Below are positions 32,322 through 63,919 of a DNA stretch of 64,000 nucleotides, piece after piece. The position numbers and the translations under genes were made by a program. The notes beneath the pieces are model-generated. The model saw only the letters and a program-made list of their open reading frames with translations. It ran no database searches and had not been told where the DNA came from. This DNA comes from a virus: positions 4,059 to 68,058 of IMG/VR virus record IMGVR_UViG_3300042923_000275; one strand, written 5' to 3'. The first letter of the stretch is position 1, and every line of letters starts with the position of its first letter.

Positions 32322-32354
32322 GACCCCAAGGTTCTATTCGCCTTGGGGTTTTTT
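32322..32354 (+). terminator. intrinsic terminator of the late operon
   Basis: ACCCCAAGG/CCTTGGGGT stem followed by a T-run, at a convergent junction. Confidence 0.75.
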
Positions 32355-32849
32355 CATATTCGTTAGCTTCTCAAATTTCTTGCCTACCCTACTCATTATG
32401 TTATTTACTCTACCATGGTGGATACCTAGCATGTCGGCGACATCTCTATATGAGAATGCTTTATCTTTAATTAATAGGAATACCTCCTTCTCTCGTGGTG
32501 ATAACACTGCTAAATATTCCTTTATTATCTCATTGTCCTCAGGATCATGGTCATCTCTCCTATGTAGAAAGTCGCACGAGCATCCAAATATCCTACTCAT
32601 CATGTCTGGTTCCATCAGAATTTCGCGTTGTTCTGTGGCCCATTTGGTAACTTTATGTATTCTATCTGGATATTTCCTTTGCTCTATATATCGTATGATG
32701 AAGCCAATATCTTGAAGCATTGTATTAATATGGCATAGGTCGTAATTTTCTTCAGGTGATCGTCGGTTCTCCGGTATTCCCTGTATTCGATCTCTGGCTG
32801 CCTCGACTATTCTATGCGTTCTTCTGTACTGACGTAGTAATTCTTTCAT
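32334..32849 (-). CDS. Xpf-like phage sigma factor / late positive regulator
   Basis: MKELL.QYRRT N-terminus and LSPREKEVFLL....FSY..VA.MLG region 4, as in PBSX Xpf. Confidence 0.75.
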   Translation of the reverse strand: MKELLRQYRRTHRIVEAARDRIQGIPENRRSPEENYDLCHINTMLQDIGFIIRYIEQRKYPDRIHKVTKWATEQREILMEPDMMSRIFGCSCDFLHRRDDHDPEDNEIIKEYLAVLSPREKEVFLLIKDKAFSYRDVADMLGIHHGRVNNIMSRVGKKFEKLTNMKKPQGE

Positions 32850-49783: not shown

Positions 49784-50860
49784 TTACGGTAATTCTACCT
49801 TATATTGACGGAGATCAACGATCTCGCTATGTTTGGGTCCAGTACCAATCATAGTTACTGGCACGCCGCTTTCGTCTTCGACTTTTTTAATGAAGTGTTT
49901 TGTTTCCTGAGATAACAAGTTGTAGTCGGTGACACCATAATCGCGGTAATTGATATAATTCACGAAATTCATTGCGATCTGTGTCGGCCTGTTGATCATT
50001 ACCATATATTGTAATCGATCGAAGTCGAATTCGAAAATTCTGCGTACCTTCTGAGTGACAGTAGTCCTCTCCAATAATGGTTTCGGTGAGCCTGACATCG
50101 CAGTAATTTCACCCCATGTGAGTTCTTTGCCACCCATCGGACCGGACCATCCGATCTGTTCGCCACGTTCATTGAATTGATTGCCGACGCGGATTGGATG
50201 ACACCTCATTACGGCAATTACGTGATCGATAGCCTGAATTGGAACGCCGCAATCTGCTACAACCTGACCAACATGTGTCTGTCGAGATGTCGTGTACGGA
50301 TATGCCATTCCGTAATTGATATCGAGGTCAAAACCCTGTGACCCCTCGATCATTACCATGTGATTTTGTTCGATATGGTTATTGATCTCATACTCAGTAT
50401 CAGACAAATACAGACGCAATGATTCGACATCGCGTGCAAGCATTACATTTCCCCCACGCATGATTTTGTCGGCTTGTGCCGCACCGCAGCCCTTTTGAGT
50501 CGAAGAAATATGACCAAGTGCTTCCGCTTCGATTTTCTTGTGTTTATCATTGATAATCATAGCACGAGGGTGAATATGTAGCCTGTGACCGCACAAGAAT
50601 TCACTGAGTTCGCGCTCAAGAATACTCAGTGTAATACCAGCGCCTGGACCGATGAACAATTCTGTACGTCCATTCACTACTGCCTGTGGGATTTGCTGTA
50701 CCATAAATGGTTTTCCTTCATCGCTCACCCATGTATGACCAGCATTGGTATAGAAGTTACAGATGGCGGCATCATAGTTATCCTTGATCGCCATATATCC
50801 GACAAATTTGCCTTTGCCCTCGGACCCTGCCTGACCACCAAATAATACATTAGTTGACAA
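49784..50860 (-). CDS. purZ: PurZ-type 2-aminoadenylosuccinate synthetase (PurA family)
   Basis: GSEGKG (Ser at the PurA catalytic Asp), NAGHT, PIRVGN, TTVT..RR, NFVN in place of TKLD; TTG start after GGAGGT. Confidence 0.75.
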   Translation of the reverse strand: MSTNVLFGGQAGSEGKGKFVGYMAIKDNYDAAICNFYTNAGHTWVSDEGKPFMVQQIPQAVVNGRTELFIGPGAGITLSILERELSEFLCGHRLHIHPRAMIINDKHKKIEAEALGHISSTQKGCGAAQADKIMRGGNVMLARDVESLRLYLSDTEYEINNHIEQNHMVMIEGSQGFDLDINYGMAYPYTTSRQTHVGQVVADCGVPIQAIDHVIAVMRCHPIRVGNQFNERGEQIGWSGPMGGKELTWGEITAMSGSPKPLLERTTVTQKVRRIFEFDFDRLQYMVMINRPTQIAMNFVNYINYRDYGVTDYNLLSQETKHFIKKVEDESGVPVTMIGTGPKHSEIVDLRQYKVELP

Positions 50861-50909
50861 TGGAACAACCTCCAATATTCTGAATTTCCTGCGATTATTA
50901 TATCGTCTG

Positions 50910-55241: not shown

Positions 55242-55994
55242 TTAGTTAATCCTCCTATCAATAACTGATTGAATCTCCTCGGTATAATGTTCACACCACG
55301 ACTTCCTGAGTCTTTTCAAGTACTGTGATACACAGGCAGTAGATACTCCCCATTCATCGGCTATTTCGCGCTGATATGATACCGAATTATCTCTGTCTAC
55401 GCCATTATTTATAGTATCGAATAGCTGTAACACTCGTCCACTTAATTTGGCTCGAAACTCCTGTATAGACATTCCATCCATTACCATTTCTTCCACCAAT
55501 TGCTCAGTTCTGGTGGCGAATACATTATCATCCTTAACCTCAGAACCAGTGATCTGTACTACATCTACGCGATGGCTATGACACTTGGGGCATACCCATT
55601 CCGTAAACTTCTTAATTACCACATCATGCTTCTTAAGGGTTTTTGTCGGTCTGCATGTGTGACCACAATCCAGACATGTCTGTTTCGTATTACCGAATAC
55701 CTGTTGTCTGAAGTATGAGCGCACTTTCCAAATTCCTTTATTGATTAGATAGATTATTGGATTGCCGATGCTCATATCTACTTCTGATATGGCGTGTGCG
55801 ACGCCTATCATGAATTCCTGTGAGACGTCATCATTCTCGGCGAGTCTATTCTTATTCATATATCGCGCAATAGCACGTGGCATGTGATAGCACCGTATCA
55901 TGACGAGTAGATCATTAGTGGCTCGTTCGTCGCCTAATTTAGCTAATTTCAACAGACGTAGGCAATTTATTTCAACATCAACATTAATAGCCAT
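55242..55994 (-). CDS. sigma-70-family factor with a zinc-ribbon insertion
   Basis: AK.GD..A..L, DD..QE..IG region 2; QREIA..WGVS..CVSQ region 4; start uncertain (alternative 56018). Confidence 0.75.
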   Translation of the reverse strand: MAINVDVEINCLRLLKLAKLGDERATNDLLVMIRCYHMPRAIARYMNKNRLAENDDVSQEFMIGVAHAISEVDMSIGNPIIYLINKGIWKVRSYFRQQVFGNTKQTCLDCGHTCRPTKTLKKHDVVIKKFTEWVCPKCHSHRVDVVQITGSEVKDDNVFATRTEQLVEEMVMDGMSIQEFRAKLSGRVLQLFDTINNGVDRDNSVSYQREIADEWGVSTACVSQYLKRLRKSWCEHYTEEIQSVIDRRIN

Positions 55995-56047
55995 AATCTC
56001 ATCTCCCACGGGCGGCATTATCTTAGCCGCCCATCCTTCATACTTTA

Positions 56048-56518
56048 TTAGCCAACTATTTCTGTTTTGGTGGCTACTGTACGTTTTTCTTTCAATCGGT
56101 CATTACGGCGCGCTTTAGTAAATGCCTGTTGACATGACTTGCAACGAGTCACCTGGAATGCATCCTGTACCTTAATAATTCTCTCGGCTCCACAGTCCTT
56201 GCAATTGATTGCTGTAGTCTTGCCGTGTAGAACCGTCCCATCTCCGGTGGTGGTCATTGTAGTCTTTGGTTTCTGCTTTGGAATTACATCAGTGTCACCT
56301 ATAGAGGCCTGTTTAGTGGTCTTCGCTGGTTTTTCCTTTTTGATGGTGTCGGTGGCCTGTGCTACTGTTTTCTGTTGGTCGGTGGTAATTTCGTCTTGTG
56401 GTACCACCAGAGACTTCTTGATTTTTGCCCCGCAGGTATCACATCTGAGAAAACCACGTACTCCTTCAACTAGATTACCAGTACATCCAGCGAGTATACA
56501 CTTATGATTCGATTCCAT
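56048..56518 (-). CDS. zinc-ribbon hypothetical protein (paralog of 60679..61227)
   Basis: C.DCG..R.IK.QD.FQVTRC..CQ; GGAGGT SD. Confidence 0.75.
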   Translation of the reverse strand: MESNHKCILAGCTGNLVEGVRGFLRCDTCGAKIKKSLVVPQDEITTDQQKTVAQATDTIKKEKPAKTTKQASIGDTDVIPKQKPKTTMTTTGDGTVLHGKTTAINCKDCGAERIIKVQDAFQVTRCKSCQQAFTKARRNDRLKEKRTVATKTEIVG

Positions 56519-56547
56519 CTAGTAGACCTCCTTTATTATCTGCGAGT

Positions 56548-56602
56548 GGCCTCGTCAGCGTGGACACTATCCACGGACCGGACTCAGTGTCCGGTTTCGG
56601 CC
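56548..56602 (-). ncRNA. type II hammerhead ribozyme
   Basis: GGCC-GAAA-CCGGA..TCCGG-TC-CGTGGA..TCCACG-CTGACGA-GGCC. Confidence 0.92.
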
Positions 56603-56668
56603 TACTGACTTCCTTGATCTGCTTTCCTACTTCCGATATCCTTATCAGAGGGATAGCTTTTTTTCGAC

Positions 56669-57010
56669 TTACGTCTGGGTATCGTGCTTGTATATCTCAT
56701 CAGCTAAACACCCAATAATCTCGTTCAATCGGTCAATTTGCTGAGTGGTAAGTAAGTCTTCGATACCCATCATTCCGCTCAAACTTCGTACGATCGCAAC
56801 CGATTTCTTAAATATCCGTTTCCCCCGGAGTCCTTCGATATCTATTTCCCAATCGATTGTTGTACCTGTTCTCAATGCTTCCATAAAAGATGTTGCTTCA
56901 TTAAATTTCTTATCTCTAGTTAGTGCCTTGAGAATGCGTACGGACTGTATGTATATTTCTACCCGTGCCCTCTCCGCGAGACGTGATTCTATGGATTGTG
57001 ATTCGTTCAT
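56669..57010 (-). CDS. hypothetical protein
   Basis: AAGGAGGT SD. Confidence 0.7.
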   Translation of the reverse strand: MNESQSIESRLAERARVEIYIQSVRILKALTRDKKFNEATSFMEALRTGTTIDWEIDIEGLRGKRIFKKSVAIVRSLSGMMGIEDLLTTQQIDRLNEIIGCLADEIYKHDTQT

Positions 57011-57131
57011 CGTACACCTCCTTCTTCGATCAGTCCTGCCATCCGCCCTACAATATTCGCGGTGGGTTGGATGCCTCGTTCTGAGGCGGCTTTGCGTATC
57101 GTCCGTGGTCTGCGATTGCGCCGCTGTACGC

Positions 57132-57275
57132 TTACTTAACGTACTTGCCTATTTCTACTGTTAGTAGATCGAATTCAGCCAATTCCTCTTTTGTGAATGC
57201 GTCACGGTTGTTATCGTGTATTGCTATCTTGATGGCCTGTATCAGTAGTTTGCGCTGTGTGACATTCAGTTTCAT
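57132..57275 (-). CDS. hypothetical protein
   Basis: MKLNVTQ start after GAGGAG. Confidence 0.5.
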   Translation of the reverse strand: MKLNVTQRKLLIQAIKIAIHDNNRDAFTKEELAEFDLLTVEIGKYVK

Positions 57276-57429
57276 GTTTAATCTCCTCTCATATTTCAGA
57301 TACTCGATATATCTCGTGTATTTGTTCTTATAGATTGCAAATACGTAACGGGCTTGCTTAGCAGATGTGACGACTATACCAGACCTCATTACGTTGGCTA
57401 TGTGTTGTGCGTACGTTATCTGGTTGTAT

Positions 57430-57675
57430 TCAAGATCGTAAGTACGGTAGTACACGTACATCCTCCAATCCACCCTCTGTGTTCATAATCTCCACAAGCT
57501 GGTCGGCGGTGTGTTCTCTGATGTAGACTGTTTCGCGTGTGTAGGGACCACAGTCGCATCTAGTTCCGACGTAATGTCCACTCCCTGAGTGCATTGATTC
57601 GAATTTGAATTCGTGACCACATTCATCACATGTTCTCGATGCCCCTAAGGCAATCGTCTCTTTTGGAAAGGCCAT
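57430..57675 (-). CDS. hypothetical Cys-containing protein
   Basis: CDEC...CDCGPYTRE; AGGAGGT SD. Confidence 0.7.
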   Translation of the reverse strand: MAFPKETIALGASRTCDECGHEFKFESMHSGSGHYVGTRCDCGPYTRETVYIREHTADQLVEIMNTEGGLEDVRVLPYLRS

Positions 57676-57704
57676 GTTACTAACCTCCTATACTCTCTGA
57701 CATT

Positions 57705-57764
57705 GGACTCGTCAGCGTGGACACTATCCACGTACGTGGACCGGACACGGCCCACGTTTCGTCC
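57705..57764 (-). ncRNA. type II hammerhead ribozyme
   Basis: GGAC-GAAA-CGTGG..CCACG-TA-CGTGGA..TCCACG-CTGACGA-GTCC (GUA site). Confidence 0.9.
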
Positions 57765-57929
57765 TAGGTATGCTTACTTGGCTACCGCATTCACAATGAA
57801 TGCTCCTACCAGTAACATTCCACCGACAACTATCAATGAAGTGATCATGCTAGCATCTACGATAACGTCACATTTATCGCTATCTTCGTACTGACCTTCC
57901 TCATATTGATGTCGGCTTCCCCTCATGGG

Positions 57930-58094
57930 CTACTTCTTCTTCTCGTAGATTTGGACTTGTACTGTGTATACCTCATTGCCGATTTTCACGTCTTGGCGCT
58001 CATACCATCCTTCCTTACCGGAAGTGAATGTCTTTGCGGTGGTCTCCGCATCGATGGTGATACCAATGTGGTTGCTCTCTTTTACTACTTTCAT
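57930..58094 (-). CDS. small hypothetical protein (54 aa, not in track)
   Basis: MKVVKESNHIG...YEKKK, read manually after AAAGGAGGG. Confidence 0.6.
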   Translation of the reverse strand: MKVVKESNHIGITIDAETTAKTFTSGKEGWYERQDVKIGNEVYTVQVQIYEKKK

Positions 58095-58124
58095 GTAAAT
58101 ACCCTCCTTTATCTCTGCGGCCTT

Positions 58125-58178
58125 CGGCTCATCAGTACGGACTCTATCCGTAGACCGGACTCAGGTCCGGTTTCGCCG
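58125..58178 (-). ncRNA. type II hammerhead ribozyme
   Basis: CGGC-GAAA-CCGGAC..GTCCGG-TC-TACGGA..TCCGTA-CTGATGA-GCCG. Confidence 0.92.
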
Positions 58179-58268
58179 TTGCGAGGCTTGTTGTTATCGT
58201 TAGCGCACCACCACCACCGATTACACTATGGGTATCGTATGCCTGATCTTGAGCGCTAAACACCGATT

Positions 58269-58508
58269 TTAAAATTTGATGCTCTGAATCGCTACGCATT
58301 GGTCTGTAGCCTTAGAGAGTATATCAGCTCCTATTAATGCCATTATAGGCATGACATTTGGGCATCCTGTCTGCATACACGTTATGATGAACTTGATCTG
58401 GTTATTTTCTTCTAGCATGGCACATTTGATCACCAGATAGCTCCCACAGTCAGGACAGATTTTATCAACCAGTAACCCTTCGTAGTCGCTCAGGTCATCA
58501 ATTCTCAT
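58269..58508 (-). CDS. zinc-ribbon hypothetical protein
   Basis: CPDCG...C...C. Confidence 0.6.
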   Translation of the reverse strand: MRIDDLSDYEGLLVDKICPDCGSYLVIKCAMLEENNQIKFIITCMQTGCPNVMPIMALIGADILSKATDQCVAIQSIKF

Positions 58509-58509
58509 C

Positions 58510-58695
58510 TTATACCTCCCCCTCCGACTTACTTAAAGCCTCAGTTTCACATCTCTGAATTTGACCCCACGCCGCTTCTTCTGATATTTCGGTACCGAAG
58601 ACCGTATTACCAGTCTTGGTGTCCGTAATGCGATAGAACCATGGTACGTTTAGAAAGTGATCGACCCTTTTGACCTCTTTTATAAACCTGTTCAT
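58510..58695 (-). CDS. hypothetical protein
   Basis: ORF track; coupled to the upstream stop. Confidence 0.55.
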   Translation of the reverse strand: MNRFIKEVKRVDHFLNVPWFYRITDTKTGNTVFGTEISEEAAWGQIQRCETEALSKSEGEV

Positions 58696-59066
58696 TCCTT
58701 CGACTCCTTTACTTTAATTAGATATTTACGTGCCTCGCGTAACTTGTATGCCATGTCTAGATCGCGTCCACGTCCGTTGATTAGTTCGGTATCCGTGTAT
58801 CTTTTATATCTCTTGATTATCGAGTTTATCTCGTGGTCTATTGATTTGATCGCGAAATCTAGAAATGATATTGTGGTACTCTCGTATACGTACTTACTTC
58901 TGCTAGTGTTTATTGCTAGCATCACCGCGCTCTTGAACAGCATAAGTTGTGATTTCTCGTTGTCATCTTCGGATTCATCGATAGTCGCTATAATTACCTC
59001 TACAGCACTTAAGATATCCTTCATTTGGTTGTCTTCTAAATAAGGCATTCTCCCCATCGTTACCAA
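58692..59066 (-). CDS. hypothetical protein
   Basis: ORF track; GAGGAG SD; exact start uncertain. Confidence 0.6.
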   Translation of the reverse strand: MVTMGRMPYLEDNQMKDILSAVEVIIATIDESEDDNEKSQLMLFKSAVMLAINTSRSKYVYESTTISFLDFAIKSIDHEINSIIKRYKRYTDTELINGRGRDLDMAYKLREARKYLIKVKESKE

Positions 59067-59085
59067 CTCCTCTATTTCTAATATC

Positions 59086-59138
59086 GGCTCATCAGCACTG
59101 GTTTACCAGTGGACGTGGACCGGAGTCCACGTTTCGCC
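59086..59138 (-). ncRNA. type II hammerhead ribozyme
   Basis: GGC-GAAA-CGTGGAC..GTCCACG-TC-CACTGG..CCAGTG-CTGATGA-GCC. Confidence 0.92.
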
Positions 59139-59140
59139 AT

Positions 59141-59632
59141 CTATGCTCTGATCAGTTCGAGCCGTGTGCGTGATATCAGCTCTAATACCTGCATAAGTGG
59201 ATAGTCCTCATCTACATTCCCGGTCTTACGACCCTCGATATTCCTGGCTAAGCCGTCTAATTGGAGTACGGAATCAATGCCGACGCCGAGGTCTATGTCC
59301 TGGGATGTTACGGTGCTTATTAGCCATTGTAGAGCTGCAATAATACGTGGTGTGTTTCCCTCGTCGTCGATTATATCTCCTATGTCATAATCCCTGTAGT
59401 CCGAGACCATTTCATTTAGCCAGTCTTGCAGTACAGTGACGGAATTCTCATATTCCCAATACGCATCCGGCTTGGTTATGATGTTTAGAGCATCGCATAG
59501 TGCCTCCTGCCTAGATATCAATCCCTCTAATTCGTATCCATCTTCCGATGCCTCTTTACCCATCTCCTCTATATCTCGGTCAACATCCTCTTGTAACCCA
59601 CGTAATTCCCTTAAGTAGTCTAATGTGTTCAT
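59141..59632 (-). CDS. acidic hypothetical protein
   Basis: AGGAGGT SD; D/E-rich. Confidence 0.7.
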   Translation of the reverse strand: MNTLDYLRELRGLQEDVDRDIEEMGKEASEDGYELEGLISRQEALCDALNIITKPDAYWEYENSVTVLQDWLNEMVSDYRDYDIGDIIDDEGNTPRIIAALQWLISTVTSQDIDLGVGIDSVLQLDGLARNIEGRKTGNVDEDYPLMQVLELISRTRLELIRA

Positions 59633-59661
59633 TTCATTACCTCCTATTTCCCTGCGGCTTC

Positions 59662-59717
59662 AGGCTCGTCAGTGCGGACACTATCCGCAGACCGGACCTT
59701 GTGATCCGGTTTCGCCT
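59662..59717 (-). ncRNA. type II hammerhead ribozyme
   Basis: AGGC-GAAA-CCGGA..TCCGG-TC-TGCGGA..TCCGCA-CTGACGA-GCCT. Confidence 0.92.
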
Positions 59718-60076
59718 TACTTGATTGGCGGTACGTACCGCTCATTGCGGTGACCACAATCTGGGCACATCAGCTGTGCGAACACTCCCTTCTCTACGCC
59801 TACCACCTGATATCTTACTATACCACACATCGTGCAGTTTGGCGGTTGATACCTCTCCAGTATTACCTCATCTATGTTGTATTTCGAGTATGTCACTACC
59901 AAGATATCGCCATTCGGCATCTCGGCTCTGTGATCGTCGACCCATTTTCCTTTGTTGTCCATAACGTACCGCTTCGCCACGGCTATCACGGCCTCGCGCA
60001 CGTCGTTCAAGCTGATTGTTTCCCCACGCCTAGAGCATGTACGGTGGAGGATTGCACGCCATCTCGAAGCTGTCAT
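59717..60076 (-). CDS. hypothetical protein with C-terminal zinc ribbon
   Basis: CTMC...CPDC; GGAGGG SD. Confidence 0.65.
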   Translation of the reverse strand: MTASRWRAILHRTCSRRGETISLNDVREAVIAVAKRYVMDNKGKWVDDHRAEMPNGDILVVTYSKYNIDEVILERYQPPNCTMCGIVRYQVVGVEKGVFAQLMCPDCGHRNERYVPPIK

Positions 60077-60157
60077 AGTATTTTCCCTCCGATATATTTG
60101 ATAACTAGCCTAACCGATCTCCAAGCCAATCTAGCCGCTAGGTTCTGTCTGAGCATG

Positions 60158-60664
60158 TTACCTATCCTCCTCCACAATCTGAGATGCCGCCTTAAAGCTA
60201 TGTTCCATGGCTATGTAGGAATGGTGGATTACTGCATCTGTATGCTTTAACTTCTCTGTGATTAAGCTAGCCACCAGAGCGGCGGCGATGTGTGCGGATA
60301 CGGCGTGACGATGTGCAGTTGCCGCATCAAGGTGAGCCTCAGCCACTAGATAGGCCCCAGCTACCAAATCGCTGTTAGCCTTAGCCGCATCGCTGGCATT
60401 CCAGGCATGTCTGTTGGCCTCGAAGTAGTTGTTTTCCTCTGCGGCCTTAACTGCATCTGCTTGATCGCGTTCAGCTTGCTCGAATGGATGCTCGGTATTC
60501 CTGTCCCGTCTCATTTCCCTCCTGTATCTGAGACCATTGGAGTCTCGATCACCATGTTTCCCCTGGCACGTGGTGAAGGCCATATTGGTGGTGTTACCTC
60601 GCCACCCATGGAGGCCGGACCGAGATAGTCCTGCACCCATGGCTGGCGAGGTGGATTGCTCCAC
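60158..60664 (-). CDS. Ala/His-rich helical protein related to the U-free genes
   Basis: TEHPF and DAATAH..A..AH.AAA motifs; start uncertain. Confidence 0.6.
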   Translation of the reverse strand: MEQSTSPAMGAGLSRSGLHGWRGNTTNMAFTTCQGKHGDRDSNGLRYRREMRRDRNTEHPFEQAERDQADAVKAAEENNYFEANRHAWNASDAAKANSDLVAGAYLVAEAHLDAATAHRHAVSAHIAAALVASLITEKLKHTDAVIHHSYIAMEHSFKAASQIVEEDR

Positions 60665-60678
60665 CTCACCTGATTCGC

Positions 60679-61227
60679 TTATTCCTTTGAGGCTTGGTCG
60701 GCTTTGAACTTGGCTAGCAACTCGGCGGCGAGAGCGGCATCTGCTTCCTTGGCTAGGCGTATCTCGGCGCGTTTGTCTTTCCTCTTCTCAGCGCGCTTGG
60801 CATTGCGGATCTTCTTCTGACACTCCTCGCATCTGGTGACCTGGAAGGAGTCTTGGATTTTGACCGTTCTGGTGGTTCCGCAATCCTGGCAGGTAATCTC
60901 GGTGGTTTCTCCAACCAGCTTGCGTCCGTTCGGTAGGATTGTCACCTTGGTCTCTACGGTTGGCTTGGTGAGCTTGCGATGTAGTTTGGCGATTGCGGCT
61001 AGATGGGCGATCACGGCATCTGCGTCAAGTACCGGGGCGTCGAGGACGACTGTCATGCTCTCGATTGTCTCTTTGATCTCAGTGATTTGCTCTGCCGTCA
61101 GCGTGTTGGTGTCTACCTCGGTGGTCTCGATGGTTTGGGTCTCGGATTGGTTGTTTTCCTCGGCGATCTTGACGGCTTGGTCGATTTCGGTGGTGGTGAC
61201 TTGGTTGTTCTCGTTGTGCTTTTTCAT
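60679..61227 (-). CDS. zinc-ribbon/coiled-coil hypothetical protein
   Basis: AAAGGAG SD; C.DCG..R..K.QD.FQVTRC..CQ. Confidence 0.75.
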   Translation of the reverse strand: MKKHNENNQVTTTEIDQAVKIAEENNQSETQTIETTEVDTNTLTAEQITEIKETIESMTVVLDAPVLDADAVIAHLAAIAKLHRKLTKPTVETKVTILPNGRKLVGETTEITCQDCGTTRTVKIQDSFQVTRCEECQKKIRNAKRAEKRKDKRAEIRLAKEADAALAAELLAKFKADQASKE

Positions 61228-61471
61228 AGGTGTCTCCTTTCGTCACGCCCGCAATCTTAGTAGATGGCTGGCGTGTTGCACCGATTGTACGGCTGGTGCG
61301 CGCTCTATTCGGTCACGGCGTCTTCGTCGTGCCGCAGGGGCGTCGAACTCGGTTTCCCTTCGTTCGGTGCTCCTGCCGCGCGGCGATGGTTTCCCCGCCG
61401 GGTCTCGTTGGGTCGGTTTCCCTTTAGGTCTCGGTGGGTCCGTTTCCCCTCTCGTCCGTCGCGGGTTCGCT

Positions 61472-61565
61472 TTGGTCCGTTAGCTCTTTAGTCCTTTAGT
61501 AGACGAAAGCCTTTGGTCCTTTTGAGTGTTAGTCCTTTAGTCGCATGAAGGGTTTAGTCCTTTAG
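61472..61565. repeat. 12-bp direct repeats (TTAGTCCTTTAG) with a 41-bp period
   Basis: Exact copies at 61488, 61529 and 61554; variants at 61472 and 61513. Confidence 0.8.
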
Positions 61566-61634
61566 CGAGTGAAAGGGCAGGTTCCCGGTCTGCTGTTGTC
61601 TGCTCGGCCCTGTTGGGCTTGGCGTGGTGCTGTT

Positions 61635-61691
61635 GGCCCTGTCGGGTCGCGCGGGCGTCGGGCCTGTCTCCCGGCGTCCGCGCCGCCCGGC
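61635..61691. repeat. GC hairpin repeat, copy 1
   Basis: Arms identical to 62813..62867; loop differs. Confidence 0.85.
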
Positions 61692-61725
61692 TGGGTGGCG
61701 GCGGGGTGGGTCTTCTCGCGTCCCG

Positions 61726-62736
61726 CTACTCGGTGGCGCGTCGGGCGTGGTCTGCGGCTTGGCGGGCGTGGTCGGCTGTCCTCCTTCCTCTCTCCTCGGC
61801 GTCGTGCCCGTCGTCGGTGGTCTCGCGTGCGTGGGCCTGTGCTCTGGCGGCCTCGGCGTGGGCGCGTGCGGCGTGGATGTGTGCTCGGCGTGTCTTGGCC
61901 TCCTCGGCGGCCTCGCTGGCCCTCTCTGCCGCCGCGCTGGCTTGGTCGGCGGCCTCGCTGGTGGCCTCGCCTCCGTCCCTGCCGCCCGCCTCCTGCTCGG
62001 CTTGGGCCTCGGTGGCGGCCCGGTTGGCGGCGTGGTGTGCGGCGGTGGCGGCCTCCTCGGCTGTGTCCTCGCTCTCGTCCCGCTCGGCGTCGTCGGTCCG
62101 CTCGGCGTCGGCTCGTCCTGCGGCGGTCTCGTGCGCGTGGGCGGCCCGTCTGCTGGCCTCGGCGGCCTCGTCCCGTGTCGCGTCGCTGGCGGCCTGTGCG
62201 GCCCTGCGTGCTCGGCGGTCCGGGTTGGCCTCGTCGGCGTTGTCGCTGGCGGCCTGTGCGGCTCCGGTGGCGGCCTCCTCGGCTGTCCGGGCGGCGTCCC
62301 GTGCGGCGTCTGCCTCGGTGGTCGCCTCCTCGGCCTCGTCGGCGGCCTCCTCGGCCCGGCGGGTGGCGTGGCTGGCGGCCTGGGCGGCCCGGTGTGCGCT
62401 GGCGGCGGCCCGGTGTGCGTGGGCCGCCCACCCGTCGCTGGCGGCGGCCTCGGCCTCGCTGGCGGCCTCGTGGGCCTCGGCGGCGGCCTCGTGGGCGCGG
62501 TTGGCGGCCCTGTGGGCGCTGGCTGTGTCCGGGTGCTCGGCGTCGCCGTGTGCGCGTGCGGCCTCGGCGTGTCGGGTGGCGGCGGTGCGGTGTGCCGTGG
62601 CGGCCTCCTCGTGTGCTCCTCGGCTGGTGTCGGCGGCCTCGTGGGCCTCGCGTGCGGCCTCGCTGGCCTGTCTCGCCGCCTCGGTGGCGGCTGTGGCCCC
62701 GTGGCTGGCTCTCTCGGCTGTCTGTGCGTGTGTCGT
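61726..62736 (-). CDS. nearly U-free Ala/Glu/Arg/His-rich protein (336 aa, putative ACG start; not in track)
   Basis: GAGAGGAG SD, 9 nt, then ACG ACA; GCC/GAG-periodic frame; only T-containing codons are TGG, ATC and the TAG stop. Confidence 0.7.
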   Translation of the reverse strand, partial: TTHAQTAERASHGATAATEAARQASEAAREAHEAADTSRGAHEEAATAHRTAATRHAEAARAHGDAEHPDTASAHRAANRAHEAAAEAHEAASEAEAAASDGWAAHAHRAAASAHRAAQAASHATRRAEEAADEAEEATTEADAARDAARTAEEAATGAAQAASDNADEANPDRRARRAAQAASDATRDEAAEASRRAAHAHETAAGRADAERTDDAERDESEDTAEEAATAAHHAANRAATEAQAEQEAGGRDGGEATSEAADQASAAAERASEAAEEAKTRRAHIHAARAHAEAARAQAHARETTDDGHDAEERGRRTADHARQAADHARRATE

Positions 62737-62812
62737 GGCGTCCCTCTCCTCTCGCGCCGTCCGGTGTCCCCGGCTCGGCGGCGCGCCTTGGCTGTGGCGG
62801 CGCGCTGGCCCC

Positions 62813-62867
62813 GGCCCTGTCGGGTCGCGCGGGCGTCGGGGTGGTCCCGGCGTCCGCGCCGCCCGGC
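62813..62867. repeat. GC hairpin repeat, copy 2
   Basis: GGCCCTGTCGGGTCGCGCGGGCGTCGGG-loop-CCCGGCGTCCGCGCCGCCCGGC. Confidence 0.85.
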
Positions 62868-62892
62868 GGCGGCTCGGTGGTGTGGCGGCCCG

Positions 62893-63609
62893 CTACCGCG
62901 CCCCGGCGCGGGCGGCGGCCCTCTGTGCGCGGGCGGCGGCGCGGTGGGCGTCGGCGGCCTCGGCGTGGGCTGTCGCGGCGTCCTCCTCGGCGGCCTCGTC
63001 TGCGGCCTCGCTGGTGGCCTGTGCGGCGCGGCTGGCGTCCTGCGCGGTCCGCCCTGCCTCCTCGGCGGCCTCGGCGGCCCGCTCGGCGGCGGCCTGTGCG
63101 GCGTCCTCCCTGCCCTCGGCGCGGGCGCGGGCGGCGTCGCTGGCGGCGGCCTCGGCTCTGTCTGCGGCGTCCTCGGCGGCGCGGCGGGCGGTCTGTGCGG
63201 CGTCGAACGGGTGTTCGGTGGCGCGGGCGGCTCGCTCGGCCTCCTCGGCGGCGCGGGTGGCCTGGGTCTCGGCGGCCTCGGCGTGTCCTGCGGCGGCCTC
63301 GGCGTCCTCCGCGCTGGTCGCTCTGGCGGCCTCGGCGGCGGTCTCTCTGGCGGCGGCGGCGGCCTGTGCGGCCCTCTGTGCGCGGGCGGCCCCTGCGCTG
63401 GTGGGTGCGGCCTCGGCGGCTTGGGCCGCGCGCTGGCTGGCGGCCTCTGCCCTGTCTGCGGCCTCGGCGGCGTCCTTCGCGGCTCCGGTCCTGCGGGCAT
63501 CCTCGGCTGGCTGGCTGGCCTCGCGGGCCGCCCGGTCGGCTGTGGCGCGGGCCTCTCTGGCCTCGGCTCTGCGCTGGGCGGCGGTGGGGCGGCTGTCGGT
63601 CTGTGTCAC
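62893..63609 (-). CDS. nearly U-free Ala/Glu/Arg-rich protein (238 aa, GTG start)
   Basis: GAGAGGAG SD, 9 nt, then GTG ACA; T only in GTG, one GAT, TTC (HPF) and TAG. Confidence 0.75.
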   Translation of the reverse strand: MTQTDSRPTAAQRRAEAREARATADRAAREASQPAEDARRTGAAKDAAEAADRAEAASQRAAQAAEAAPTSAGAARAQRAAQAAAAARETAAEAARATSAEDAEAAAGHAEAAETQATRAAEEAERAARATEHPFDAAQTARRAAEDAADRAEAAASDAARARAEGREDAAQAAAERAAEAAEEAGRTAQDASRAAQATSEAADEAAEEDAATAHAEAADAHRAAARAQRAAARAGAR

Positions 63610-63890
63610 GGTGGTGTGCTCCTCTCGTCGGCGTCCGCTGTCTGCGGCTCGTCGTGCCCGGCTTGCTGGCGCGCCGGGCGGCGCGTGGGCTGTGTGCGTG
63701 TCCGGTGGACCTCCTGTGGCGGCCCTCGTGGCTGGCCTCCCGGCGGCCTCGGCGGCTGGCCCGCGTGCGTTAGCCCGTCGGCGGCCTCTGTGGGCCTCTC
63801 CGGGCCTCCCGTGCGCTCCCGTGGCCTGTCGCCCTGCCGGGCGGGTGTCTGCCGGGCTGGCGGCCCGGCGGGGCGCGCGGCCCCACCACC

Positions 63891-63919
63891 AGCACAACAC
63901 AGCCGCGCGCCCGTGTCAA
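63891..63919 (-). promoter_or_regulatory. candidate early promoter: TTGACA-17 nt-TGTGCT
   Basis: Perfect -35 at 63919-63914; non-consensus -10 preceded by TGTG; lies just upstream of the A-free segment. Confidence 0.45.

Follow-up and report, generated by a model that had tools for sequence, protein, structure and literature searches.

The 64,000 nt stretch of DNA analysed here (the window) represents bases 4059–68058 of a 68,058-bp virus record, IMG/VR record IMGVR_UViG_3300042923_000275. It contains five short elements, HH1 to HH5, which by their sequence and base pairing are real type II hammerhead ribozyme motifs, i.e., hammerheads with stem II open. The five are found within 3.2 kb, at gene junctions and on the strand of the genes. 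They are probably functional cis-acting ribozymes that actively process one long minus-strand phage mRNA. The elements are as follows, in minus-strand order.

HH5: 59662–59717, minus strand; stem II AGGC/GCCU, stem III of 8 bp, loop I UAGUG, core strand CUGACGA
HH4: 59085–59139, minus strand; stem II UGGC/GCCG (outer pair U·G), stem III of 8 bp, core strand CUGAUGA
HH3: 58125–58178, minus strand; stem II CGGC/GCCG, stem III of 7 bp, loop I UAGAG, core strand CUGAUGA
HH2: 57705–57764, minus strand; stem II GGAC/GUCC, extended stem III of 10 bp, loop I UAGUG, core strand CUGACGA
HH1: 56548–56602, minus strand; stem II GGCC/GGCC, stem III of 7 bp, loop I UAGUG, core strand CUGACGA

The elements are 54–60 nt long. 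From 5' to 3' each consists of a stem II strand (4 nt), GAAA, a stem III hairpin (7–10 bp), U, H17, a stem I hairpin, CUGAYGA and the other stem II strand. Stem I has 6 bp and a loop of 4–5 nt; in HH4 it is CACUGG/CCAGUG with the loop UAAA. The permutation is the same in all five, with loops closing stems I and III and stem II opening into the flanks. All 13 core letters are constant. The core strand C3-U4-G5-A6-N7-G8-A9 is intact throughout, as CUGACGA in HH1, HH2 and HH5 and as CUGAUGA in HH3 and HH4, and GAAA is invariant. Position H17 is never G. It is C in four elements (59690 in HH5, 59112 in HH4, 58153 in HH3 and 56576 in HH1) and A in HH2 (57733), which has a GUA site. The pair 15.1–16.1 is A-U and 10.1–11.1 is G-C in every element, and 1.1–2.1 is C-G in three and U-A in two. 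The rules by which Perreault et al. reject candidates allow no mispair at 10.1–11.1, 1.1–2.1 or 15.1–16.1 and no repeated mispairs in short stems (PMC3088659). None of the five would be rejected by these rules, as all 85 of the 85 cells in their alignment are standard pairs.

Comparison of the five shows extensive covariation. Both sides of the pair change in 11 of the 17 pairs (2/4 in stem II, 4/7 in stem III and 5/6 in stem I). None of 500 alignment shuffles equals the observed pairing and covariation values, and when partners are slid by 1–3 columns only 17–35% of the cells are paired. A plain descriptor, independent of any covariance model and consisting of the core letters, H17 not G and the three helices, finds exactly the five on both strands of the window. 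On dinucleotide shuffles it gives a mean of 0.005 matches per window, with a match in one of 200 shuffles. A covariance model built from the five (R1), which recovers its own training set by construction, scores them at 76–85 bits (HH5 84.8, HH4 76.3, HH3 79.2, HH2 78.7, HH1 81.8). The next best score in the window is 11.5 bits, and the same five are the total for the whole 68,058-bp record. In 135 viral matches, aligned by fitting to the model, 98.7% of the cells pair and 15 of the 17 pairs show compensatory changes. When the elements are folded in isolation, the hammerhead junction is the minimum free energy (MFE) structure of HH1, HH2, HH3 and HH5. In HH4 it is 0.6 kcal/mol above the MFE, and the sole difference is the terminal U·G pair.

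The position of the elements relative to genes is also regular. The gap from the upstream stop codon to the ribozyme is -1, 1, 90, 9 and 66 nt from HH5 to HH1, and is thus within 9 nt in three of the five. The first base of HH5 is the final base of a TAA stop (59719–59717), HH4 begins 1 nt past a TAG (59143–59141), and HH2 begins 9 nt past a TAA (57776–57774). HH3 and HH1 begin 90 nt and 66 nt, respectively, past the TAA stops of a 79-aa and a 113-aa open reading frame (ORF). On the downstream side, the distance from the ribozyme 3' end is 13–16 nt to the Shine-Dalgarno (SD) sequence AGGAG(G) and 27–30 nt to the ATG in all five. The predicted cut lies 54–58 nt from the start codon in each. As the SD spacing is this uniform, cleavage would produce a uniform leader of 54–58 nt. 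The preliminary description of this DNA had placed five elements here on the sense strand of the genes, each shortly upstream of the next SD, had reported intact GAAA, GUH (four GUC, one GUA) and CUGANGA cores with compensatory changes in all three stems, and had recognised the hammerhead consensus with stem II open. All of this is borne out at the sequence level, except that HH4 starts at 59085 and not at 59086.

The proposed processing is as follows. One minus-strand mRNA would cover the small genes upstream of the replication genes and include all five ribozymes. Each ribozyme would fold once its 54–60 nt are transcribed and, with no protein needed, would cut the RNA after H17 by internal transesterification. 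The predicted cuts are at 59690/59689 (HH5), 59112/59111 (HH4), 58153/58152 (HH3), 57733/57732 (HH2) and 56576/56575 (HH1). The upstream product would retain its stop codon, and its 3' end would be the G+C-rich stem III hairpin carrying a 2',3'-cyclic phosphate. The downstream product would begin with a 5'-OH at the stem I hairpin, followed by the core strand, the 13–16 nt spacer, AGGAG(G) and the ATG. These are the end groups described for hammerhead cleavage products (PMC6765202, PMC8782182). The products should separate at once, since only the 4-bp stem II joins them. Four internal units would result, together with one 5' piece and a long 3' piece, and the stability and translation rate of each could then be set separately, without dependence on host RNases. 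Suggestions in PMC3088659 and in a 2019 review (PMC6765202) are in line with such separate stability and translation of units. In this scheme, cleavage in vivo, a single early transcript and an effect of the hairpin-capped ends on half-life are inferred. The cutting of the mRNA into 5'-OH units is partly supported, by analogy, in that it agrees with the interpretation of such clusters by Perreault et al. (PMC3088659). The genes before, within and after the predicted units are listed here.

Upstream of the first cut: 59717–61227, minus strand; ORFs 60679–61227 (182 aa, zinc ribbon), 60158–60664 (168 aa) and 59717–60076 (119 aa)
Predicted unit HH5 to HH4, 578 nt: 59141–59632, minus strand; one gene, for an acidic protein of 163 aa that matches no family
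Predicted unit HH4 to HH3, 959 nt: 58269–59057, minus strand; three genes, 58692–59057 (121 aa), 58510–58695 (61 aa) and 58269–58508 (79 aa)
Predicted unit HH3 to HH2, 420 nt: 57774–58094, minus strand; two genes, 57930–58094 (54 aa) and 57774–57926 (50 aa, hydrophobic C-terminus)
Predicted unit HH2 to HH1, 1157 nt: 56669–57675, minus strand; three genes, 57430–57675 (81 aa, Cys-rich), 57132–57473 (113 aa) and 56669–57010 (113 aa)
First genes after the last cut: 55242–56518, minus strand; 56048–56518 (156 aa) and 55242–56018 (258 aa)

Genes inside the predicted units abut or overlap, as do all three between HH4 and HH3. The 163-aa gene has its ATG at 59632, and its AGGAGG follows HH5 by 16 nt; in the 121-aa gene the ATG is 9 nt after GAGGAG. 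The ORFs upstream of the first cut have no firm Pfam or PHROG family. The minus-strand genes continue past 55242 into the ligase, PurA-like, RecA, primase-helicase, NrdD and Pol III alpha genes, and a terminator-like site is absent on this strand between 61300 and 52184. Given the gene order, the shared strand, the short gaps and the absence of terminator-like sites, the region may be early and may form one operon.

The stem II strands provide further information on the fold that is maintained. Within each ribozyme its own two strands pair at 4 of 4 positions, but the strands of neighbouring ribozymes pair at 3, 4, 2 and 3 of 4. This difference implies selection on the cis fold, and the stem II pairing fits selection on cis cleavage better than it fits end-joining of excised units.

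A hairpin that might lock the downstream product after cleavage, formed by the CUGAYGA strand and a downstream ...CAG and visible by eye in four of the five, was considered and rejected. It is not above the level of shuffled flanks (for the five, a fraction of 0.09–1.0 of the shuffles is at least as good), and in 160 other products 3.10 vs 2.80 core bases are paired (p = 0.17).

Two short minus-strand ORFs, putative as genes, fill the long gaps between stop codon and ribozyme, 58144–58299 (51 aa) and 56602–56700 (32 aa). The start of each lies inside the preceding gene, about 31 nt from its end. The 51-aa ORF enters HH3 and stops at a UAG within loop I, and the 32-aa ORF stops at a UAG that overlaps the first base of HH1 stem II. 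If these ORFs are translated, ribosomes would unfold HH3 and HH1.

Several results weigh against active processing by the five elements. The Rfam model Hammerhead_II (RF02276) matches none of the five at its gathering cut-off of 37 bits, which is a curated threshold and not a property of ribozymes. A search with Infernal and this model had been proposed in the preliminary description as a check, and it would not have confirmed the five. In E-value mode HH5, HH4 and HH3 are listed below the cut-off at 35.3, 34.4 and 33.0 bits, but HH1 and HH2 are unlisted even at E ≤ 10 in a 1.4-kb search. A pseudoknot of at least 4 bp between loop I and the 3' tail is present in none of the five, the longest pairings being 3, 3, 1, 3 and 3 bp. 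According to PMC3088659 this pseudoknot occurs in the majority of type II hammerheads and is not universal; in the type II ribozyme tested there, its loss made cleavage 20-fold to more than 100-fold slower at 0.5 mM Mg2+. When about 18 nt of flank is included on each side, the MFE structure retains stem I in five of five and stem III in four of five, but pairings with the flanks take the place of stem II. A scan for promoters and terminators is at or below chance level (14 promoters found vs 12.4 expected), and a promoter cannot be assigned from it. Lastly, megablast of 55500–61500 against phages gave no relatives of this phage.

The low Rfam scores and the absence of the pseudoknot are not peculiar to this phage. 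Among 160 other viral type II motifs, a pseudoknot is present in 3% of the 76 with loops of 3–5 nt vs 55% of the 49 with long loops. In ten viral loci that have arrays, RF02276 at gathering gives 29 matches, and all are in four loci (13 in L023, 6 in L066, 5 in L012 and 5 in L048). There are no matches at gathering in the other six, L020, L021, L046, L063, L065 and L076, each of which has 4–5 motifs by the R1 model. The five elements belong to this short-loop subclass, which the Rfam threshold misses in six other arrays as well. Routine annotation therefore undercounts phage ribozymes, with none of the five found here and none in the six arrays. Members of short-loop arrays may also be present in Figures S1–S6 of PMC3088659.

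When the five are aligned with 27 motifs from the six loci, two bases are constant: loop I opens with U in 32 of 32, and an A lies immediately 5' of stem II in 32 of 32. Of these motifs, 27 were found with the model built from the five, and the set is biased toward likeness. An A is also present 5' of stem II in 143 of the 163 motifs of a wider set (among the matches listed), which was selected by pattern and descriptor. The loop I first U and the unpaired A beside stem II are thus a candidate tertiary contact that might replace the pseudoknot. A broader proposal can be made, which is tentative and on balance doubtful, that pseudoknot-free viral type II hammerheads form a distinct and widespread subclass that falls systematically under Rfam thresholds. 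The subclass would have a 6-bp stem I, a loop of 4–6 nt starting with an invariant U, and a stem II of 4 bp with an invariant unpaired A as its cap, with the U-A contact replacing the pseudoknot. It would represent a portable module of stop codon, ribozyme, spacer and SD. Its permutation would have been selected for the product ends, as only the type II permutation would give hairpin-capped new ends together with a hold of a mere 4 bp. Blocks of early cistrons would in this manner become independent 5'-OH mRNAs that are unseen by host 5'-end-dependent decay or by systems that sense phage RNA ends.

Arrays of this kind were compared in other viral contigs. A pattern scan found at least 124 loci, each of at most 4.5 kb. 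Forty-four of these may hold less flank, so that the counts are lower bounds, and three pairs of loci come from the same contig. The largest number of descriptor matches on one strand is 0 in 7 loci, 1 in 89, 2 in 13, 3 in 5, 4 in 4, 5 in 5 and 13 in 1, among the at least 124 listed, and motifs are never found on both strands of one locus. Since viral loci have arrays of 4, 5 and 13, five hammerheads within 3.2 kb are ordinary for the class. The gene context recurs also. Among 163 distinct viral type II contexts (of the matches listed), 154 have the stop of an ORF of at least 40 codons within 150 nt upstream (median gap 2 nt), 138 have a start codon preceded by an SD at up to 120 nt downstream (median 25 nt), and 100 have a 4-bp stem II. 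A search with the stem I/core pattern found 13 metagenome loci, with 11 R1 matches in ten of them, and 7 loci in genome contigs, which are in metagenome-assembled genomes of varied phyla. The 13 metagenome loci share none of the 17 window ORFs.

As a discovery the array is minor, as hammerhead clusters at phage genes have been known since 2011 and viral arrays of at least 4 and up to 13 are listed above. Clustered hammerheads between phage genes are already in print, and the array described here is a further example. The type II hammerheads of RF02276, whose first natural examples were described in PMC3088659, have the same core, three-helix junction and permutation. They likewise have an A 5' of a short stem II and a phage context on the sense strand between genes. 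The five differ from them in lacking a pseudoknot of at least 4 bp, in a loop I of only 4–5 nt and in scores that are below the cut-off or unlisted. The prophage clusters of PMC3088659 (Clostridium scindens, Azorhizobium caulinodans and the ardA triple of Agrobacterium tumefaciens; Fig. 3 there) resemble the present array, in that closely spaced same-strand ribozymes are found on either side of single genes or of short runs of small, non-conserved genes. Three clustered arrays in that paper cleaved in vitro at all sites and one cleaved in vivo in E. coli, and the clusters were interpreted as processing of long phage transcripts. Those arrays have 2–3 members, are in prophages and have demonstrated cleavage, whereas the present one has five, is predicted to cleave and is in a free soil-phage genome with unrelated genes. 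In Desulfovibrio vulgaris, three type II hammerheads near hypothetical or phage-like genes, two of them about 300 nt apart, cleave in cells as determined by cyPhyRNA-seq and also during in vitro transcription (PMC8782182). They are chromosomal loci of a cultured bacterium. The role of such ribozymes in phage mRNAs has been called largely elusive (PMC6765202). The present five are natural variants with one core, different stems and uniform spacing to the ribosome binding site (RBS), and they represent a ready test set for this role. They could act as compact natural cistron separators.

Of the same subclass are the short-loop IMG/VR arrays (five motifs each in L020, L046 and L063, four each in L021, L065 and L076). 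These have the 6-bp stem I, a loop that starts with U, an A-flanked 4-bp stem II and no pseudoknot. The stop codon abuts the ribozyme, the SD follows after about 10–25 nt, and the RF02276 gathering cut-off misses them. In L020, for example, there are five single small genes, each with its stop abutting a ribozyme and then about 10–25 nt to AAAGGG and an ATG. No genes are shared with the window, the stem sequences are different, and R1 scores outside the window reach at most 63.9 bits vs 76–85 bits for the five. The pseudoknot-bearing IMG/VR arrays (L023 with 13 in 4 kb, L012 with 5, L048 with 5 and L066 with 6) are likewise dense, same-strand and between small phage genes, but they pass the Rfam cut-off (37.7–65.5 bits) and can be far denser than five in 3.2 kb. 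L023 is part of a 57-kb IMG/VR contig and its 13 type II hammerheads in 4 kb are Rfam-grade. The predicted leaders are also similar in their working to RiboJ-type insulators, where a hammerhead cut just upstream of the RBS produces a defined leader that starts with a hairpin and is independent of the upstream sequence. RiboJ-type insulators are synthetic parts and do not form a natural family; their hammerhead comes from a satellite RNA and has another permutation, and the two are not homologous in context.

Other explanations of the five elements were considered. It is unlikely that they are hammerhead-shaped but too slow to matter in the cell, with a main role as stable hairpins between cistrons (stems I and III), where they would stop exonucleases or keep ribosomes apart in the manner of repetitive extragenic palindromes. 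The absence of a pseudoknot or a demonstrated tertiary contact, the sub-threshold or absent Rfam scores and the flank pairings that outcompete stem II in context folds are all consistent with this explanation. Hairpins alone do not explain why 13 core letters are invariant in five of five amid two-sided changes in 11 of 17 pairs, or why H17 is never G. In addition, the constant first U of loop I and the constant A on the 5' side of stem II (32/32, of which five are the window's own and the rest were selected by the model) point to a conserved contact. Chance matches to a loose consensus are scarcely credible. A very loose pattern, GAAA...T...CTGANGA, does have 13 matches vs 6.3 expected, but the full descriptor has 5 vs 0.005, and chance would also have to place five matches on one strand, within 3.2 kb, at gene junctions and with compensatory changes.

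Two further explanations accept the motifs but give them another role. In the one, excised units would be rejoined into circular or spliced RNA, through the reverse reaction of a chimeric ribozyme or by a host ligase of the RtcB type. Each internal unit does start with the 3' half of one ribozyme and finish with the 5' half of the next, and in the HH4 to HH3 unit the stem II strands so brought together pair at 4 of 4 positions. RtcB joins ends of the 5'-OH and cyclic-phosphate kind. Pairing across the other three units is 3, 2 and 3 of 4, vs 4 of 4 in cis. The possibility was raised by Perreault et al. for their arrays, where spliced or circular products were sought and, according to a statement there of data not shown, none were found (PMC3088659). 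Rejoining is very improbable here. The same low probability is given to a role primarily at the DNA level, with ribozyme activity secondary and the 55-nt repeats serving as homologous joints for exchange, duplication and loss of early-gene cassettes. An identical 25-nt stretch of stem I and core is common to HH1 and HH2, and the stem I and stem III types occur in mixed combinations across the five, as such joints might leave them. The invariance of the core together with the covariation of the stems would not be explained by this, and none of the 17 window ORFs recurs in the at least 124 viral and 13 metagenome loci that have hammerheads.

The preliminary description had also suggested the repeats as recombination points for gene cassettes. 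This was analysed in pairs of related loci among the other viral arrays; these loci are kin to each other and are not independent. Some pairs show what would be expected, e.g., L045 and L070 share flanks but differ in the sequence between the hammerheads, and L012 has two hammerheads 12 nt apart where the related L073 has one. Of the internal ends of high-scoring segment pairs, 64 of 363 are within 15 nt of a hammerhead vs 6% of random positions, and the density of breakpoints per 100 nt is 0.73 in hammerheads, vs 0.25 in the rest of the intergenic DNA and 0.17 in genes. The conserved ribozyme sequence itself extends BLAST alignments to the ribozyme edge. Junctions with a breakpoint are 34 of 58 with a hammerhead vs 90 of 291 without, where the zones with a hammerhead have about double the length. 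When all zones are set to 80 nt, the numbers are 19/58 vs 77/291 (p = 0.34) and 17/58 vs 63/291 (p = 0.23). The excess in equal zones is not significant, and the idea of recombination joints is not supported for this phage.

The source of the window is a tailed phage, as the plus strand has genes for portal, E-type major capsid, tape measure and tail proteins, and the record ends share a 127-bp overlap. The record is the 68-kb genome of a tailed soil phage and represents a free phage rather than a prophage. Genes on the minus strand include Pol III alpha, NrdD, primase-helicase, RecA, the PurA-like enzyme, a PD-(D/E)XK nuclease and DNA ligase. The ribozyme region is upstream of these replication genes, on the same strand, and is packed with small ORFs. 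The region 55800–60200 is present in three soil-metagenome runs, all of DNA and none of RNA, where the contig depth of the phage is 270–1020x, and there are no variants within the five ribozymes in the contigs of these runs. None of the ten ORFs between 56669 and 60076 has a Pfam or PHROG family at cut-off, and for the 163-aa protein the protein atlas has nothing above 0.76. No relative of the phage was found with the stem I/core pattern in viral contigs, with the 163-aa protein as a query, or with the ligase, either alone or as a six-sequence alignment, against viral and metagenome contigs. Ligase homologues at 47–52% identity are present only on contigs of 2.6–6.7 kb. No tRNA genes were found, and across the whole window there are no other RNA or ribozyme families at Rfam gathering or at E ≤ 0.05. 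The three longer gaps in the ribozyme region (57008–57135, 58179–58272 and 56603–56672) fold no better than shuffles, with z values of -0.87, +0.75 and -1.23.

Some neighbouring proteins have recognizable domains. A zinc-ribbon C-terminus is common to 60679–61227 and 56048–56518, with 26 of 50 residues identical (52%, E 5e-17), and CxxC pairs are present in several further small proteins of the region. The 258-aa ORF 55242–56018 (minus strand) has a weak Sigma70_r2 match of 16.7 bits, below cut-off, and an inserted Cys-rich segment. A 171-aa ORF at 32334–32849 (minus strand) has a clear Sigma70_r4 match. These sigma-factor-like proteins may indicate that the phage redirects transcription after the ribozyme-bearing genes. 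Between the nearly A-free block described below and the first small gene, positions 61349–61565 contain five TTTAGTCCTTTAG-like 13-mers with a spacing of alternately 16 and 25 nt (a 41-nt period), as well as four GGTTTCCC motifs, the fourth of them recognised by eye. These repeats may be an array of operators, iterons or promoters that serves the transcript with the ribozymes.

Two other features of the phage were observed. The minus-strand ORF 49784–50875 encodes a PurA-like enzyme of 363 aa. Its best solved relatives are short archaeal PurA proteins (196 bits), and the next matches are the phage chains 6fko/6fm1 (151 bits) and 7odx, the latter named PurZ. The P-loop is GSEGKG, with Ser where archaeal PurA has Asp (GDEGKG), similar to GSTGKG in the phage chain. 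We take 6fko/6fm1 to be PurZ and the P-loop Ser to be a mark of PurZ. In that case, 2-aminoadenine may take the place of A in the phage DNA. An HD-type or MazG-type partner was not seen among the 15 neighbouring ORFs scanned around this gene.

The second feature is a block at positions 61600–63850 where the plus strand has 10 A in 2251 nt. The block has a G+C content of about 80%, compared with about 44% for the phage, and runs on to the record end and into the first ~800 bases of the record. Contigs of three runs bridge the ribozyme region and this block, one of them 67,920 nt with 0 differences, so that it is not a one-off chimera; these runs may be the source of the record. The minus strand of the block has a strong 3-nt periodicity, with repeats spaced in multiples of 21 nt, and encodes an Ala/Glu/Arg-rich, heptad-like protein in two copies about 1176 nt apart. 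T is absent even at third codon positions of this strand, and the avoidance therefore acts on the base itself. A T-free strand has almost no ATG, GTG or TTG starts and no stops. Long ORFs are stacked in the block because all six frames are open. The periodic frame holds ORF 62893–63900, which ends at a TAG, and the same frame is periodic for 1.3 kb more without a canonical start. It is speculation, but if A is replaced by 2-aminoadenine, an A-free template strand in this block would be free of the modified base. The PurZ-like gene and the 2.3-kb nearly A-free strand make the phage itself unusual, and both seem stranger than its ribozyme array.

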